A DNA stretch of 36,445 nucleotides from Candidatus Hydrothermales bacterium. Its GTDB lineage: Bacteria > Hydrothermota > Hydrothermia > Hydrothermales > JAJRUZ01. Where the stretch lies: assembly GCA_039630575.1 (NCBI GenBank), contig JBCNUW010000020.1, positions 1 to 36,445 of the forward strand. Direction: 5' to 3'. A program made the position numbers and the translations under genes. The first letter of the stretch is position 1. Each line of letters starts with the position of its first letter. The notes beneath the pieces are model-generated. The model did no database searches. It saw only the letters and a program-made list of their open reading frames with translations, and was not told where the DNA came from. Below, piece after piece: positions 1,767 through 9,854 of the stretch.

Positions 1767-2069
1767 CTACCCTTTCTCACCAAGAATTCTTTTAGCAAGT
1801 TCTTTCCTTTCTTCTTTTGTTTCTGCAAGGATAAGAAGTGCAATAAGTCTAAACCCTTCATCCATTCTCCTAAACCCCTCATCCATTTTTCTAAATCCCT
1901 CATCCATCTTCCTAAATCCTTCATCCATTCTTCTAAATCCTTCGTCCATTTTTTGAAGTATCGCAGTAGCATTCTCTTTTATAATCTTTCCATTTCTCCA
2001 GGCCATATAGCCTACCGCACCTGCAAGAAGTGTAACTCCTACCCCTACTAAACTTAACGCAATTTCCAT
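1767..2069 (-). CDS. Small membrane-anchored coiled-coil protein with five [K/R]MDEGFR heptads
   Basis: N-terminal TM helix (IALSLVGVGVTLLAGAVGYMAW) followed by heptad repeats. Start moved from 2114 to ATG 2069 because a good promoter lies between the two. Confidence 0.75.
   Translation of the reverse strand: MEIALSLVGVGVTLLAGAVGYMAWRNGKIIKENATAILQKMDEGFRRMDEGFRKMDEGFRKMDEGFRRMDEGFRLIALLILAETKEERKELAKRILGEKG
1849..1953. repeat. Five tandem 21-bp units (CTAAAYCCYTCRTCCATYYTY on + strand)
   Basis: Units start at 1849, 1870, 1891, 1912 and 1933; differences are synonymous or K/R. Confidence 0.95.
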
Positions 2070-2075
2070 ATTAGA

Positions 2076-2104
2076 ATAATAAAGGAAATTAAGCAAAAAG
2101 TCAA
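2076..2104 (-). promoter_or_regulatory. Sigma70-type promoter, probably leaderless
   Basis: TTGACT (2104-2099), 17 bp spacer, TATTAT (2081-2076), 6 nt, ATG 2069; no SD. Confidence 0.65.
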
Positions 2105-2283
2105 TAATATTCATGCGAAAGAAATTGTGAAGGGCTTATACGGTTCTGTAGCACAAACTTTTCGAAATTTTTTCCTTTTTATCTTTCATAAATTTTAATA
2201 TTTCTCTAAATTTTTTCATCAATGTATCAAAGGTTTATCCTTAGAAACAGAATTTTACGAGAGTAATAAAATAAAAAGATATA

Positions 2284-3259: not shown

Positions 3260-3814
3260 ATGGAAAACTACTACGAACTTTTAAAAAATAAAGAAATTAA
3301 TGAAAAAATAGAAAAATTCGTTAAAATTCTAAAAGAAGTAAATAAAAGAATAAACTTAATTAGTAAAAAAGATTTAGAAAATATTTATAAAAAACACATA
3401 ACGGAGTCCCTTTTCTTTCTTGATATTATAAAAGGAAAAAAAATAGTAGATATCGGATCAGGAGCAGGGTTTCCAGGAATTATACTTGCAATCATTAAGA
3501 AAGATTACGATTTTTACCTCATCGAAAGAAACAAAAAGAAAGCAGAATTCTTGAGAAAAATAAAAAGAGAATTAAATCTAAAAAATGTGAGGATATACGA
3601 CTGTGATCTAAAGGATTTTAATGAAAAAAATAAATTTGAGTTTGTCTCCAGAGGTGCTGGATATGAAAAGATTCTGAAAATTTTGAAAGAGAAAAAATTT
3701 AAGGGATACTTTTACCCAGTATTACCCAACGAGGAGGAAAAATACAAATACATAACTTTCATAAATAAATGGACAAACAAAAAAATAAAAATAGGAACAA
3801 TAGAAATTCAATAG
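3260..3814 (+). CDS. rsmG: 16S rRNA m7G527 methyltransferase RsmG (compact)
   Basis: N...NL, H..ES, DIGSGAGFPGI.LAI, IE...KK..FL and SRG motifs. Confidence 0.88.
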   Translation: MENYYELLKNKEINEKIEKFVKILKEVNKRINLISKKDLENIYKKHITESLFFLDIIKGKKIVDIGSGAGFPGIILAIIKKDYDFYLIERNKKKAEFLRKIKRELNLKNVRIYDCDLKDFNEKNKFEFVSRGAGYEKILKILKEKKFKGYFYPVLPNEEEKYKYITFINKWTNKKIKIGTIEIQ

Positions 3815-4425
3815 AAAGATTTAAAAGATAAAAGAAATACAACTCTACCTATAATTTCAGCTTCTTCATTAAGCTCAAAAACTCCATACCTTTTATTGTA
3901 TGACAATAAAAAAAACTGATTGTTCTTCTTCAAAAGTTTCTTAACCACAAATTCCGATGAACCTATCCTTACAACTACTATATCATGGGAATCAAACCTA
4001 CCTCTTTCAACTATAACAAAATCACCCTCATTTATAAGAGGCTCCATGCTATCAGAACTAACTTGAAGAACAAAGTAATTTTCCTTATTTCTTAAAATTT
4101 TATCTTTCAGGCGCCAGGGTAGAAAAAATAAAGGAATTTCAATTTCCCTTTCCTTTTTAATAGGATCATAATATAAAGCTTTTTTTCCTGCTCCAACTTT
4201 ACCCATTAAAGCAAGCCTTATAATACTTTCCTCATCAAAAAAATAATTTACACTTACATTAAAAATAGAGGAAAGCCTTTTTAAATCTCTTAAAGACGGC
4301 CTCCTTTCATTCCTTTCCCACCTCGAAATAGCAAGAAGCTTATATCCCAACAAATTAGCAAGTTCTCTTTGAGTTAAACCTTTTCCTTTCCTTAGTTCTC
4401 TTATTTTCTTACCAAGATCTTCCAT
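3808..4425 (-). CDS. XRE-HTH + S24 peptidase (CI/LexA-like) repressor
   Basis: HTH (IRELRKGKGLTQRELANLLG...ISRWERNERRP), Ala-Gly cleavage site (GKVGAG), catalytic Ser (SDSM) and Lys (VVKK). Confidence 0.9.
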   Translation of the reverse strand: MEDLGKKIRELRKGKGLTQRELANLLGYKLLAISRWERNERRPSLRDLKRLSSIFNVSVNYFFDEESIIRLALMGKVGAGKKALYYDPIKKEREIEIPLFFLPWRLKDKILRNKENYFVLQVSSDSMEPLINEGDFVIVERGRFDSHDIVVVRIGSSEFVVKKLLKKNNQFFLLSYNKRYGVFELNEEAEIIGRVVFLLSFKSFY

Positions 4426-4431
4426 CTAATA

Positions 4432-4461
4432 ATTATAACAGAAAAGTGAATAATTATCCAA
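4432..4461 (-). promoter_or_regulatory. Repressor promoter (extended -10, leaderless)
   Basis: TTGGAT (4461-4456), 18 bp spacer ending in TGT, TATAAT (4437-4432), 6 nt, ATG 4425. Confidence 0.65.
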
Positions 4462-4471
4462 TATGGATTAA
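4454..4471. promoter_or_regulatory. Putative operator 1, TTATCCA-ATA-TGGATTAA
   Basis: Palindromic core ATCCA-N3-TGGAT overlapping the repressor -35; repeated 29 bp downstream. Confidence 0.75.
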
Positions 4472-4482
4472 TTTGAATTTAT

Positions 4483-4500
4483 TTATCCATTTTGGATTAA
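4483..4500. promoter_or_regulatory. Putative operator 2, TTATCCA-TTT-TGGATTAA
   Basis: 16/18 identical to operator 1. It lies between TTGAAT (4473-4478) and TAAAAT (4498-4503) upstream of umuD. Confidence 0.75.
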
Positions 4501-4510
4501 AATTATAATT

Positions 4511-4873
4511 ATGGATAAGATAAAAATAAGTTTTACCGGTTTTCCATCTCCTGCAAGAGATTATGGAGAAAATTCTTTAGATCTCAACAGTTTGGTAGTC
4601 TCAAATCCCTGTTCAACATTTTTTTTGCGAGTGGAAGATAATTTTGAAAAGGAAGGTATAAAGAAAGGAGACATAATCGTAGTTGATACATCAATTGAAA
4701 ATTTTGAGAACAAACTGATTGTAGCTGAATTTAAAGGTGAACTTGTAATAGGAAGAGTTTTGAAGGAAAAAAACAAAACTATTTTTGTCTCAAAAAGTAT
4801 AAAAGAAGAAGTAAGTGAGGACACTAACTTTGAAGTTTTTGGTGTTATTACTTTTTTATTAAGGAAGTTATAA
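4511..4873 (+). CDS. umuD: UmuD-like subunit, short N-terminal arm, catalytic Ser/Lys absent
   Basis: GFPSPA.DY...LDLN, P.STFF, GD.IVVD and FGVIT match UmuD; directly upstream of umuC. Confidence 0.85.
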   Translation: MDKIKISFTGFPSPARDYGENSLDLNSLVVSNPCSTFFLRVEDNFEKEGIKKGDIIVVDTSIENFENKLIVAEFKGELVIGRVLKEKNKTIFVSKSIKEEVSEDTNFEVFGVITFLLRKL

Positions 4874-4874
4874 A

Positions 4875-6131
4875 ATGGCTGTAGGTGTTATTGACTGCGA
4901 TAACTTTTACGTATCTTGTGAGAGAATCTTAAGACCAGATATTAAAAAGATCCCTTGTATTGTACTTTCAAACAATGATGGATGCATTATTGCAAGATCA
5001 AAAGAAGTAAAGGAAATGGGTATTCCGATGGGTGCTCCCCTTTTTAAATACAAAGAAATGATTGAAAAAAATAAAATACTTGTCTTTTCTTCAAATTATA
5101 CTCTCTATGACGATATCTCAAAAAGAGTTATGAGTATAATAAAAAGTTTTGCAAAAAATGTAGAAGTTTATTCCATCGATGAAGCTTTTGTTGACCTTGA
5201 GGAAATTGAAGATAAAGAAAAATTCTTAGAAAAAGTAAAAGAAAAAATAGAAAAATGGACAAAAATACCTGTTTCGATAGGAATAGGTGAAACAAAGGTG
5301 CTTTCAAAAATTGCATTAAAATTTGCAAAAAAGATGGAAAATAGAAAAATTTTCAACATCATTGACCACAAGGAAAAAGATGAATTGTTAAAAAAAATAG
5401 AAGTTGAAGATATATGGGGTATAGGACCTATCTCAGCAAAACTTTTGAGAGAAAAGGGAATTACAAATGCTTTTCAATTTAAAAACTTGGATGTAAAATG
5501 GGTAAAAGAAAATTTAACTTTAAAAGGACTTAAAATTCTTAATGAAATAAAAGGAATAAAATGCTTTAAAATAGAAGAAAATGCTAAAATAAAGAGTATA
5601 AGTGTTTCAAGAACTTTTGGAGAAAAAATAGAAAGTTTTAAAGAAATAAAAGAAGCAGTTTCCTATCTCATTTCACTTGCTGCAGAAAGGTTAAGAAGCG
5701 AGAATTTACTCGCCAAAAAGATATGTGTCTACATAATGAGTTCTCCTTTTCAAAAAAACTTTTACTACAGAGCTGAAAAGCTTAATTTACCTGCTCCAAC
5801 AGCCTATACTCCTGACATTGTAAAATTTGGTGAAAGAATACTAAAGATAATCTTTAAAGAAGGAATAAAATATAAAAAGGCTGGCGTCTATCTTTATGGA
5901 CTTATAGAAGATGAAAAAAATATAAAGAGTGTATTTTCAGATAAACTCTTATTTAACGATAAAAAAAGAAAAATAATATTAGCTATTGACAAGATAAATA
6001 AAAACTTTGGTAGAAATACAATCTACTTGGCAAGTGGATTCATAACAAAAAGGTGGAACACTGTACAAATATTTAGATCAAAAAGGTACACTACAAGATG
6101 GGATGAGTTAAAAACTGTTAAAGTTTTATAA
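4875..6131 (+). CDS. umuC: Y-family DNA polymerase V catalytic subunit UmuC
   Basis: DCDNFYVSCER, VLSNNDGC, FSSNY.LY, YSIDEAF and the C-terminal S.RYTTRWDEL motif. Confidence 0.93.
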   Translation: MAVGVIDCDNFYVSCERILRPDIKKIPCIVLSNNDGCIIARSKEVKEMGIPMGAPLFKYKEMIEKNKILVFSSNYTLYDDISKRVMSIIKSFAKNVEVYSIDEAFVDLEEIEDKEKFLEKVKEKIEKWTKIPVSIGIGETKVLSKIALKFAKKMENRKIFNIIDHKEKDELLKKIEVEDIWGIGPISAKLLREKGITNAFQFKNLDVKWVKENLTLKGLKILNEIKGIKCFKIEENAKIKSISVSRTFGEKIESFKEIKEAVSYLISLAAERLRSENLLAKKICVYIMSSPFQKNFYYRAEKLNLPAPTAYTPDIVKFGERILKIIFKEGIKYKKAGVYLYGLIEDEKNIKSVFSDKLLFNDKKRKIILAIDKINKNFGRNTIYLASGFITKRWNTVQIFRSKRYTTRWDELKTVKVL

Positions 6132-6140
6132 ATAAAAAAT

Positions 6141-6776
6141 TTAAAAAGGTGAGGTACCGATTAATAAAATAGAAAATAATCGAGCAGGTAAAAAAACTAA
6201 AAGATCAATTATTGGAATACCTAAAAATGAAGAAATAACTATAAAAGATGTTAAAATTAAAACTCCGTAGGGTTCAAGCATTCTGTATCTTAACTTCCAT
6301 TCAAAGGGTAAAAAAATCGACAAAATCTTTGAACCGTCAAGCGGTGGAATAGGTATCAAGTTAAAAAAGGCAAGAATTAAATTTATCATATATGTAGAAA
6401 GTAAAAGCTTATAAAAATAATAAATGAATAAATTTTGTGAAGAATATGGTAAAAATCTAAGAATAAAAGAAATAAAAACAGCAAGAATTAAATTCGAAAG
6501 GGGTCCTGCAAAGGCAACCTTTGCGAAATCTTTTTCAGGATTACGAAAGTAATAAGGATTAACAGGAACAGGTTTTGCCCATCCTATATGAATTAGAAAA
6601 AGCAATATAAAACCTATAGGATCTATATGTGGTATTGGATTTAAAGTCAATCTCCCGATACTTCGTGGTGTAGGATCTCCTAACCTGTCAGCTACTAAAG
6701 CATGAGAAAATTCATGAATAGTAAGTGCTAACAAAATACCAGGTAAAAAAATAATTAAACTCGCTAAACTATCCAT
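6141..6776 (-). CDS. Site-2 protease (M50 family)
   Basis: HEFSH, GWAKPVPVNP, AGPLSN, FNLIPIPPLDG; multiple TM helices. Confidence 0.92.
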   Translation of the reverse strand: MDSLASLIIFLPGILLALTIHEFSHALVADRLGDPTPRSIGRLTLNPIPHIDPIGFILLFLIHIGWAKPVPVNPYYFRNPEKDFAKVAFAGPLSNLILAVFISFILRFLPYSSQNLFIYYFYKLLLSTYMINLILAFFNLIPIPPLDGSKILSIFLPFEWKLRYRMLEPYGVLILTSFIVISSFLGIPIIDLLVFLPARLFSILLIGTSPF

Positions 6777-9095: not shown

Positions 9096-9854
9096 TTAAT
9101 TATGTTTTAATTTATGTGATAAATTCCATAGTTTTGCATATTTTATGAATGTATGAAAAGAAGAGCATATGGCAAGAATAAAACCATGAAAACCATCGAG
9201 AAAACCAAGCCTTATAATATACATCCTAAGAAAAAAATAAAGGGGCCTAAATATTAAATCTAAAATTGAAGCTCTTTTACCCTTACTGAAAAGCTCTCTT
9301 GCTGATAGCTCTGTATAGAGATTTAACTTATTAATATAATGAAAAAGATCAGGATCAGTATAATGTATTATCTTTCCTCTTTTAATTTTTTTAACTTTCC
9401 CCTCTACCAGAATTTTTTCATGAACTATACTCTCTGAAATTCTTGCTTTTTCTTTTCTAAAAACTCTCAAACTATAATCAGGATACCATCCACCAAAACG
9501 AATTAGTTTTCCTAAAAAGTAAGATGCTCTCATCAAATAAAAACCATCCTCGGTATTTTTTTTTATTTCCTTTAAAATCTCTTCAGCAAGAGTTTTCTCA
9601 ACTTGTTCATCAGAATCAAGAAAAATAACCCAATCTGTTTTAACCTTTGATAAGGCAAATTCTCTCTGATTTTTAAAATTATCAAATTTTCTTTCGAAAA
9701 CTATAGCCTTCTTCTTCCTTACTATCTCTAAGGTTTTATCTGTAGAACCGCCATCAATAACTATTATTTCATCACAAAAAAAAAGAGAATCAATTGCCCT
9801 TTCAATCGTCTCTTCAGCATTTAAAGCAATAATAACTCCTGTTATCTTACCCAG
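9096..9854 (-). CDS. GT2 glycosyltransferase (WaaE/KdtX-like), about 252 aa
   Basis: The frame is open upstream of 9536 and encodes KITGVIIALNAEETIERAIDSLFFCDEIIVIDGGSTD...DWVIFLDSDE. The C-terminus has GWYPD and GFLDG. The start is probably CTG 9854. Confidence 0.85.
   Translation of the reverse strand: MGKITGVIIALNAEETIERAIDSLFFCDEIIVIDGGSTDKTLEIVRKKKAIVFERKFDNFKNQREFALSKVKTDWVIFLDSDEQVEKTLAEEILKEIKKNTEDGFYLMRASYFLGKLIRFGGWYPDYSLRVFRKEKARISESIVHEKILVEGKVKKIKRGKIIHYTDPDLFHYINKLNLYTELSARELFSKGKRASILDLIFRPLYFFLRMYIIRLGFLDGFHGFILAICSSFHTFIKYAKLWNLSHKLKHN

Follow-up and report, generated by a model that had tools for sequence, protein, structure and literature searches.

The cleavage of UmuD to UmuD' is treated as a step that defines the activation of the DNA polymerase Pol V, and HumD of phage P1, a UmuD homologue that has no inhibitory arm and is cited as being active already, is called an exception (PMC7092418). 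As for regulation, Francisella has a self-contained unit in which FddR, a phage-type S24 repressor, is divergent from the error-prone polymerase gene dinB and shares palindromes with it (PMC13148647). In Bacteroidetes, a non-canonical LexA that combines HTH_3 (PF01381) with S24 controls error-prone polymerases without the classical LexA (PMC8565304). HdiR of Streptococcaceae, SetR of R391/SXT, and UmuDAb of Acinetobacter are non-LexA S24 repressors of umuC-like or umuDC-like genes (PMC8565304, PMC8460599). Here we describe a 2.3 kb cassette of three genes (a repressor, umuD, and umuC) from a Candidatus Hydrothermales bacterium. It lies on contig JBCNUW010000020.1 (C13 of the genome), and we call the whole analysed stretch of 36,445 nucleotides the window. 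The alignments indicate that its UmuD has lost three things at once: the protease activity, the residue at which the cut is made, and the greater part of the inhibitory arm. By analogy, the cassette joins two known ideas: a captured repressor (as in FddR-dinB, HdiR, and Bacteroidetes) and a ready-made subunit of the HumD type.

The UmuD-like protein (4511..4873, forward strand) has 120 amino acids. When it is aligned to E. coli UmuD (8gmt_B), Thr9-Gly10 falls at Cys24-Gly25, Asn44 replaces Ser60, Gly81 replaces Lys97, and one residue is deleted just ahead of Asn44. A preliminary description of this locus, made from the DNA letters, was right that the S24 dyad is gone, and it missed that the cut site reads Thr-Gly and that just 9 residues precede the glycine, as compared to 24 in E. 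coli. (The GFPSPA segment of the arm is kept.) Like a canonical UmuD, the protein has an S24 fold and is encoded directly upstream of umuC, but it has neither the dyad, nor a Cys/Ala-Gly site, nor an arm of about 24 residues. We rejected the idea that the protein starts farther upstream: extending the frame upstream adds 13 open codons, none of them ATG, GTG, or TTG, and in three congeners (G001, G003, and G004) a stop codon stands immediately ahead of the umuD ATG (the open frame is 121 amino acids). Because the stop codon adjoins the ATG, the arm cannot be longer in those three genomes. We also rejected the idea that umuD is a decaying relic, as the ratio of nonsynonymous to synonymous substitution rates (dN/dS) is 0.11-0.29 across six pairs, which indicates purifying selection. 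The corresponding values are 0.14-0.23 for the repressor and 0.10-0.14 for umuC.

The predicted structure of UmuD has a predicted local distance difference test (pLDDT) score of 87.6, and its best fold match is UmuD' (1umu, template modelling score 0.72). As with HumD, the likeliest reading is that the protein is made in a UmuD'-like form from the start. Like HumD (NF051876), it is a UmuD homologue that has lost most of the arm and whose active site is eroded. But HumD-family proteins begin with Met-Gly, and we found 15 of them without umuC in their loci, whereas the window's protein keeps 9 residues, is chromosomal, and adjoins umuC. Also, it scores 70.2 bits against the HumD model, for which the cut-off is 120, while all five of the phage Met-Gly proteins that were tested pass this cut-off (their active sites are eroded). 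It scores below its own NCBIfam cut-off as well.

UmuC (4875..6131, forward strand; 418 amino acids) begins after a gap of 1 nt. It has the domains IMS, IMS_C, and, from residue 369 on, DUF4113 (Pfam), and its catalytic residues Asp7, Asp102, and Glu103 are invariant in 89 of 89 aligned sequences. Its best NCBIfam match is UmuC, yet the score is under the cut-off (324 versus 431). It is the only Y-family match in the host genome. We modelled UmuC with two full-length copies of UmuD and obtained a score of 0.77, while the best of three controls scored 0.00. (Of 157 solved complexes, 116 attain the mark that we use for this score, as do 2 of 215 mismatched pairs; these numbers hold only roughly here.) Between runs, at least 86% of the contacts are the same, and the pLDDT of the partners is at least 78. 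Residues 404-418 of UmuC touch one copy of UmuD, while residues 13-23 of the other copy touch UmuC, and this asymmetric layout matches a published model of E. coli Pol V (PMC11791011). The assembly is predicted to be Pol V-like. Overall, the window shares with E. coli the umuD-umuC operon, the UmuD' fold, UmuC's catalytic residues and C-terminal tail, and the interface as modelled; it differs in UmuD, as described above, and in having no LexA that we could find.

The repressor (3808..4425, reverse strand; 205 amino acids) consists of HTH_3 (residues 8-62) and Peptidase_S24 (residues 73-196; Pfam). As the preliminary description stated, its S24 apparatus is complete: Ala79-Gly80 (codons at 4191-4186, reverse strand), Ser126 (4050-4048), and Lys162 (3942-3940) are all present, and none of these residues varies across the five orthologues that were aligned. 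With a penta-helical HTH_3 joined to S24, an Ala-Gly bond, and a Ser-Lys dyad, the protein is a CI-type S24 repressor. It matches the phage family phrog_4 of PHROG (E = 2.8e-40). It is not a canonical LexA, as it scores 47.5 bits against a LexA cut-off of 110.95 (TIGR00498) and its DNA-binding domain is HTH_3 rather than PF01726.

The 85 bp between the repressor and umuD (4426-4510) contain two 17-bp palindromes, not assigned to a strand, that we predict to be operators: box 1 (TTATCCAATATGGATTA, 4454-4470) and box 2 (TTATCCATTTTGGATTA, 4483-4499). Both are kept in G001, G003, and G004. With up to two mismatches, the box pattern has two matches in the window, as compared to 0.08 on average by chance, and none of 100 shuffles reached two, although this control is favourable by construction, since the pattern was built from the tested sites and their orthologues. 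Across the 1.89 Mb genome, TATCCA-N3-TGGAT occurs twice, both times in this gap. A matrix built from eight boxes gave 26 genome matches above 9 bits. Apart from the two boxes, none of these lies between genes, and there is no match at recA. We rejected a genome-wide regulon because neither scan turned up any further convincing site, and the predicted regulon of the repressor is the cassette alone.

Both predicted promoters are overlapped by boxes. The one for the repressor (4432..4460, reverse strand) has TGGATA, which lies within box 1, then 17 nt, an extended -10 TATAAT, and 6 nt to the ATG. The scan for this promoter found one site where chance gives 1.0 on average, so it is not significant by itself; the -10 is 5-6 nt from the ATG in all four genus members. 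The umuDC promoter (4473..4503, forward strand) has TTGAAT, 19 nt, TAAAAT, and 7 nt to the ATG. Box 2 falls in its spacer and touches the -10. The spacers are 18-19 nt in all four genus members, and a consensus scan (16-18 nt) did not report the window's site. A -10-like hexamer is found 6-7 nt ahead of the umuD ATG in each of the four. These distances suggest that both transcripts are of the leaderless type, even with the promoter scan alone at chance level.

The cassette lies between rsmG (3260-3814) and a gene for an M50 peptidase (6141-6776). On these flanks, the divergent repressor, the 85 bp, and the two palindromes, our gene calls and Pfam agree with the preliminary description. The conservation that it proposed to check is also there: the cassette is at the same site, with both boxes, in three of four congeners (G001, where it spans two overlapping contig ends, G003, and G004). 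In the fourth, G002, the cassette is absent and rsmG and the M50 gene are 160 bp apart. Because this empty site (L294:2053-2211) holds a 52-bp remnant of umuC (78% identity, E = 2e-6, matching about 5658-5710 of the window), we conclude that G002 lost the cassette. In G005, from another genus, rsmG and the M50 gene are adjacent. At this site, then, a genome has either both the repressor and umuDC or neither.

The preliminary description had also pointed to a host lexA as something to look for. We found no match to the LexA DNA-binding domain (PF01726) in the host genome (94.7% complete; 14 candidates scored), and no LexA match over the cut-off in any of the four congeners or in 11 genomes of the order. 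The only S24 matches in the host genome are the cassette's repressor and UmuD. The recA gene is present and intact. Because there is no LexA domain, there are just two S24 genes, RecA is intact, and the arrangement and the boxes are conserved, the dedicated CI-type repressor is likely the regulator of umuDC. It might instead regulate only itself, or act as an activator, or leave the operon to an unassembled LexA. The link between the protein and the boxes comes from inference, the authors of the Bacteroidetes study note that activation is not excludable without non-cleavable mutants (PMC8565304), and LexA is also present in two of the five Desulfobacterales genomes with similar cassettes (see below). 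But in all four genus members the predicted umuD promoter encloses box 2, the repressor and umuDC come and go together, and the order seems to have no LexA, so we would be quite surprised if the repressor did not repress umuDC.

Are there other UmuD proteins that lack both the serine and the lysine (hereafter, dead UmuD)? Among 272 genomes of the phylum, we examined the best 24 UmuD-like loci. Ten are canonical UmuD from other classes, 11 are LexA-like fusions, and three are dead (in G014, G031, and G035). G014, from another family of WOR-3, has a divergent repressor and a dead UmuD with a 10-residue arm. The region of the recognition helix differs in this repressor, and the same divergent layout has its own repeated palindrome, which we read by eye as ATACCC-N3-GGGT. 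In the repressor tree, the grouping of the window with G014 has a support of just 90/92. G031 and G035 encode dead UmuD proteins with 14-residue arms, together with umuC, and no adjacent repressor. There is no other S24 match in G035 (88% complete), and the LexA of G031 has no recognisable S24 domain. Ahead of both of these umuD genes (L034:4636-5100 and L036:4570-5031), TTGAC[AT]-17-TAAAAC stands 7 nt from the ATG with unlike spacers, which hints that dead umuD is expressed without regulation in these genomes.

The survey also turned up other unusual proteins. Four genomes of one WOR-3 family encode a LexA DNA-binding domain followed by a C-terminal part without Ala-Gly or GDSM (L235:2985-3665, L236:2691-3290, L237:402-1043, and L238:61-699; the one tested has no S24 domain by Pfam). 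These are possibly non-cleavable LexA proteins, and G031 pairs such a LexA with a dead UmuD and UmuC. Eleven loci from one WOR-3 family (L054, L055, L057, L058, L060, and L062-L067) encode proteins of about 195 amino acids, directly ahead of a Y-family polymerase, that have a LexA-like N-terminus and a UmuD-like AGFPSPA S24 domain. Finally, three genomes of the same class that have no Y-family polymerase match encode motif-intact HTH+S24 repressors (L037:925-1590, L038:4614-5249, and L039:4467-5105).

Outside the phylum, a scan of GTDB found one dead UmuD in 80 loci, in a metagenome-assembled genome from Desulfobacterales, and a search of 301 Desulfobacterales genomes found four more. In each of these five genomes, the serine has become alanine and the lysine has become arginine; four of the five proteins have Thr-Gly, with arms of 9, 9, 9, and 17 residues. 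In 5 of 5, umuC is downstream and a different cleavable CI-type repressor is upstream in tandem (Phage_CI_repr and S24 in L110). A palindrome of the type TGTTTAT-N4-ATAAACA precedes the repressor in three of the five cassettes. We found no further dead UmuD among 64 classified UmuD open reading frames from 67 loci in Desulfobacterota (401 genomes, 78 with matches). All 64 are intact, and eight have a regulator as neighbour: four CI-type and divergent, four LexA-type and in tandem (two of each were typed by Pfam). The four divergent ones (L347, L352, L353, and L358, from four genomes) are Phage-CI-type repressors beside an intact umuD-umuC.

The preliminary description proposed to test if repressors of this kind co-occur with dead UmuD. 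Across 218 classified UmuD-like open reading frames (leaving out 4 more without the search motif and setting aside 15 HumD-like and 4 mixed or truncated proteins), an S24 regulator is found within 600 bp for 8 of 11 UmuD that lack both residues as compared to 1 of 188 intact UmuD. If we add the split contig of G001 and G515 by hand, then 10 of 12 dead loci have such a regulator, from just three clades and from samples that were drawn with dead-UmuD queries. So we see an enrichment rather than a rule: we rejected obligate pairing because 2 of the 12 dead loci (G031 and G035) have no repressor and because four intact umuDC loci do have a CI-type repressor. The link is strong, not obligate.

The same counts bear on another suggestion of the preliminary description, that the repressor's protease cleaves UmuD in trans. 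This would happen on the RecA filament, and one enzyme would open both gates. A cleavable CI-type repressor is adjacent to umuD at 10 of 12 dead loci as compared to 4 of 252 intact loci, and the arms of UmuD can be cleaved in trans within UmuD heterodimers (PMC5342242). But the scissile Ala/Cys has been replaced by Thr, and the arm does not have the docking residues T14, L17, and F18; in E. coli UmuD 18, whose arm is similar, the protein's own active site is intact and still makes no cut (PMC5342242). Furthermore, dead UmuD and umuC persist without an adjacent repressor in G031 and G035, CI repressors are also found beside intact umuDC, and the 12 dead loci represent just three clades. We consider trans cleavage very improbable.

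It is also unlikely, though less so, that UmuD is matured to a true UmuD' by some unrelated host protease or aminopeptidase or by an internal start codon. An in-frame methionine lies 2 residues ahead of the glycine in G014 and 1 residue ahead in G035, and threonine precedes the glycine in 8 of 11 proteins from dead loci. Yet between residue 1 and the glycine, there is no ATG, GTG, or TTG in the window or in the three congeners, and across dead proteins the residue ahead of the glycine varies (T, A, L, M, S, I, K, or V). The neighbouring M50 peptidase is not a good candidate, as genomes in which this site is empty have its gene too.

To look more widely, we took the best 150 of 7,787 cluster representatives and scored the 118 that have a single domain (28 tandem proteins and 4 without the motif were left out). 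Of these 118, 24 have neither Ser nor Lys. Called arms of at most 17 residues were found in 15 of the 24 as compared to 8 of 86 intact proteins (Fisher's exact test, p = 2.5e-7), and a residue other than Ala or Cys precedes the glycine in 15 of 24 as compared to 3 of 86. A scan of metagenomic DNA for the pattern gave two matches, neither of them inside a UmuD open reading frame. The 28 tandem UmuD-UmuD proteins (220-301 amino acids; P0132-P0144, P0154, and others) are a curiosity in their own right: in several of them (P0133, P0134, P0142, and P0144), the first domain has an arm and no Ser/Lys while the second domain keeps both, which suggests a single-chain dimer that cuts across domains.

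In UmuC trees, the dead-UmuD loci fall in three clades. We do not claim several independent origins, as a single origin was not rejected by the approximately unbiased (AU) test (p-AU = 0.386 for UmuC, 0.74 for UmuD, and 0.456 for WOR-3 alone); for UmuD, the tree constrained to a single origin actually scored higher. FastTree placed the Desulfobacterales clade with Solidesulfovibrio, and later trees did not recover this.

Putting these results together, we think that the following scheme is probably correct. By analogy with other S24 repressors, dimers of the repressor would sit on boxes 1 and 2 and shut both promoters, including its own (negative autoregulation). Upon DNA damage, RecA filaments would stimulate self-cleavage of the repressor at Ala-Gly, which would free umuDC. 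The short-armed UmuD without Ser and Lys would then pair with UmuC without being cut, standing in ready-made for UmuD'. Of this scheme, the gene anatomy, the residues, the boxes, the conservation, the purifying selection, and the lack of a detectable LexA are what we observed; the binding of operators, the repression of both promoters, the induction by damage, the activity of the polymerase, and the remaining need for RecA are what we propose.

The preliminary description proposed, as one of two options, that control collapses to one gate. For proteolysis we agree, as it is likely that just one proteolytic gate remains, in the dedicated repressor. But the activity of Pol V depends on RecA transfer (PMC6511836, PMC12926913), so there is probably still another RecA step, a non-proteolytic one, before the mutasome is active. 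RecA-dependent activation is probably kept because UmuC retains its C-terminal DUF4113 region; published work assigns this part of UmuC to the binding of RecA and UmuD'.

How active would such an enzyme be? The E. coli variants UmuD 18 and UmuD 3A are uncleavable, with an arm that does not dock, and partially mimic UmuD' (PMC5342242). These are laboratory variants with an intact active site, while the window's protein is natural and has lost its active site. Although its active site is competent, UmuD 18 is not cleaved, and it gives low but detectable mutagenesis (PMC5342242). By analogy, the leftover 9 residues probably make the window's enzyme a weaker mutator than UmuD'2C. A rival idea is that UmuD, left uncut, binds UmuC and permanently brakes or tunes it, and that the enzyme is nearly inactive or mostly accurate and serves damage tolerance rather than mutagenesis. 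UmuD 18 does lower mutagenesis, and its authors allow for accurate bypass (PMC5342242); the N-terminus of UmuD' is beside the active site in a model of Pol V (PMC11791011); and a 9-residue arm ending in Thr-Gly is found in both WOR-3 and Desulfobacterales, which suggests that the arm has a role. On the other hand, the catalytic residues of UmuC and the GFPSPA segment are under purifying selection, the arms of the short dead proteins range from 3 to 17 residues, and a mutagenic product would explain the tight repression. We doubt that UmuD is a permanent brake, and we take the idea a little more seriously than maturation by another protease.

Several points weigh against our preferred scheme, in which uncut UmuD supports an active polymerase. 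Binding by the repressor, induction, and polymerase activity are all predictions. The intergenic region is conserved throughout, not just at the boxes. The missing 5% or so of the genome could hold lexA, though none of the four congeners has it over the cut-off. Single-residue changes in the N-terminus of UmuD', which is modelled near the active site of UmuC, alter mutagenesis (PMC11791011), and given that location, 9 extra residues could block activity. In our model of the complex, residues 1-12 of UmuD are absent from the confident contacts, and the model was folded with alignments dominated by canonical UmuD and UmuC, so it shows likeness rather than binding or activity. It is also uncertain if UmuC binds the clamp, because KSVF (5920-5940 of the window) stands where the consensus of homologues has QxxLF (the variants in the genus are KSVF, KNIF, and KSIF, all without Gln). 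Finally, called arm lengths depend on the gene callers, and 9 of the 24 dead representatives have long arms as called.

The cassette does not appear to be part of a prophage or mobile element. Its neighbours are housekeeping genes (Pfam), and the G+C content is 0.287 as compared to 0.303 for the genome. We refer the host, which is probably of thermophilic origin, to candidate division WOR-3 because a relative of its UmuD (72% identical) carries that source label. Two Logan assemblies from the same hot-spring study contain umuD, and no letter difference is listed for it; one of these assemblies is possibly the source sample. Elsewhere in the window, an open reading frame at the end of the contig (35926-36384, forward strand) resembles a DDE transposase. 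Another (1767-2114, reverse strand; 115 amino acids) carries DEGFR[RK]M four times in tandem and matches nothing in Pfam, and its homologue in G002 has two repeats. A third (9096-9536, reverse strand; 146 amino acids) matches just part of 250-residue proteins in three congeners; in the host genome, a frameshift or stop has probably interrupted it.

The preliminary description named SetR and UmuDAb as precedents. They are precedents for control without LexA, but HumD and FddR-dinB are closer. FddR-dinB has the same divergent layout with shared palindromes and differs in its target, which is DinB rather than UmuDC, and in its motif, which is GTG-N11-CAC rather than ATCC-N5-GGAT (PMC13148647). 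The LexA of Bacteroidetes recognises GGA-N5-TCC or CTAA-N5-TTAG, while the window has TCC-N5-GGA, with the half-sites reversed; also, its regulon is global and includes recA (PMC8565304), whereas the host genome has two intergenic sites and none at recA. The rumAB genes of R391/SXT are also under the control of LexA and CroS, and RumA is cleaved (PMC8460599). UmuDAb (PMC11332147) is itself a UmuD, one whose N-terminus binds DNA. In the available portions of the papers we examined, no dead, short-armed UmuD is described with HdiR, SetR, or UmuDAb. More broadly, in literature whose coverage stopped short of subscription journals and supplements, we did not find the combination of a captured repressor and a dead, short-armed UmuD. 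On the features we tested, the proteins of the cassette fall outside of LexA, canonical UmuD, HumD, the LexA of Bacteroidetes, and the FddR motif.

A broader reading is that bacterial chromosomes hold a widespread, undescribed class of Pol V that does without cleavage, in which a short uncut arm sets the activity and a captured CI-type repressor has taken over damage control, in a portable unit of three genes. We consider this reading tenable and somewhat short of probable. Its scope would be WOR-3, Desulfobacterales, and the 24 of 118 UmuD representatives, the latter known as proteins alone. The regulatory logic is familiar from FddR, HdiR, and the repressors of Bacteroidetes, which limits the surprise. 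Nevertheless, annotating such UmuD proteins as autoproteolytic subunits would misdescribe them. It has been proposed that lineages without LexA regain SOS-like control by capturing phage repressors (PMC13148647), and the cassette would be an example of this. And natural umuDC operons that have a RecA-sensitive repressor and no cleavage of UmuD would let the purpose of the second cleavage be tested, as well as the effect of a short uncut arm on mutagenicity.

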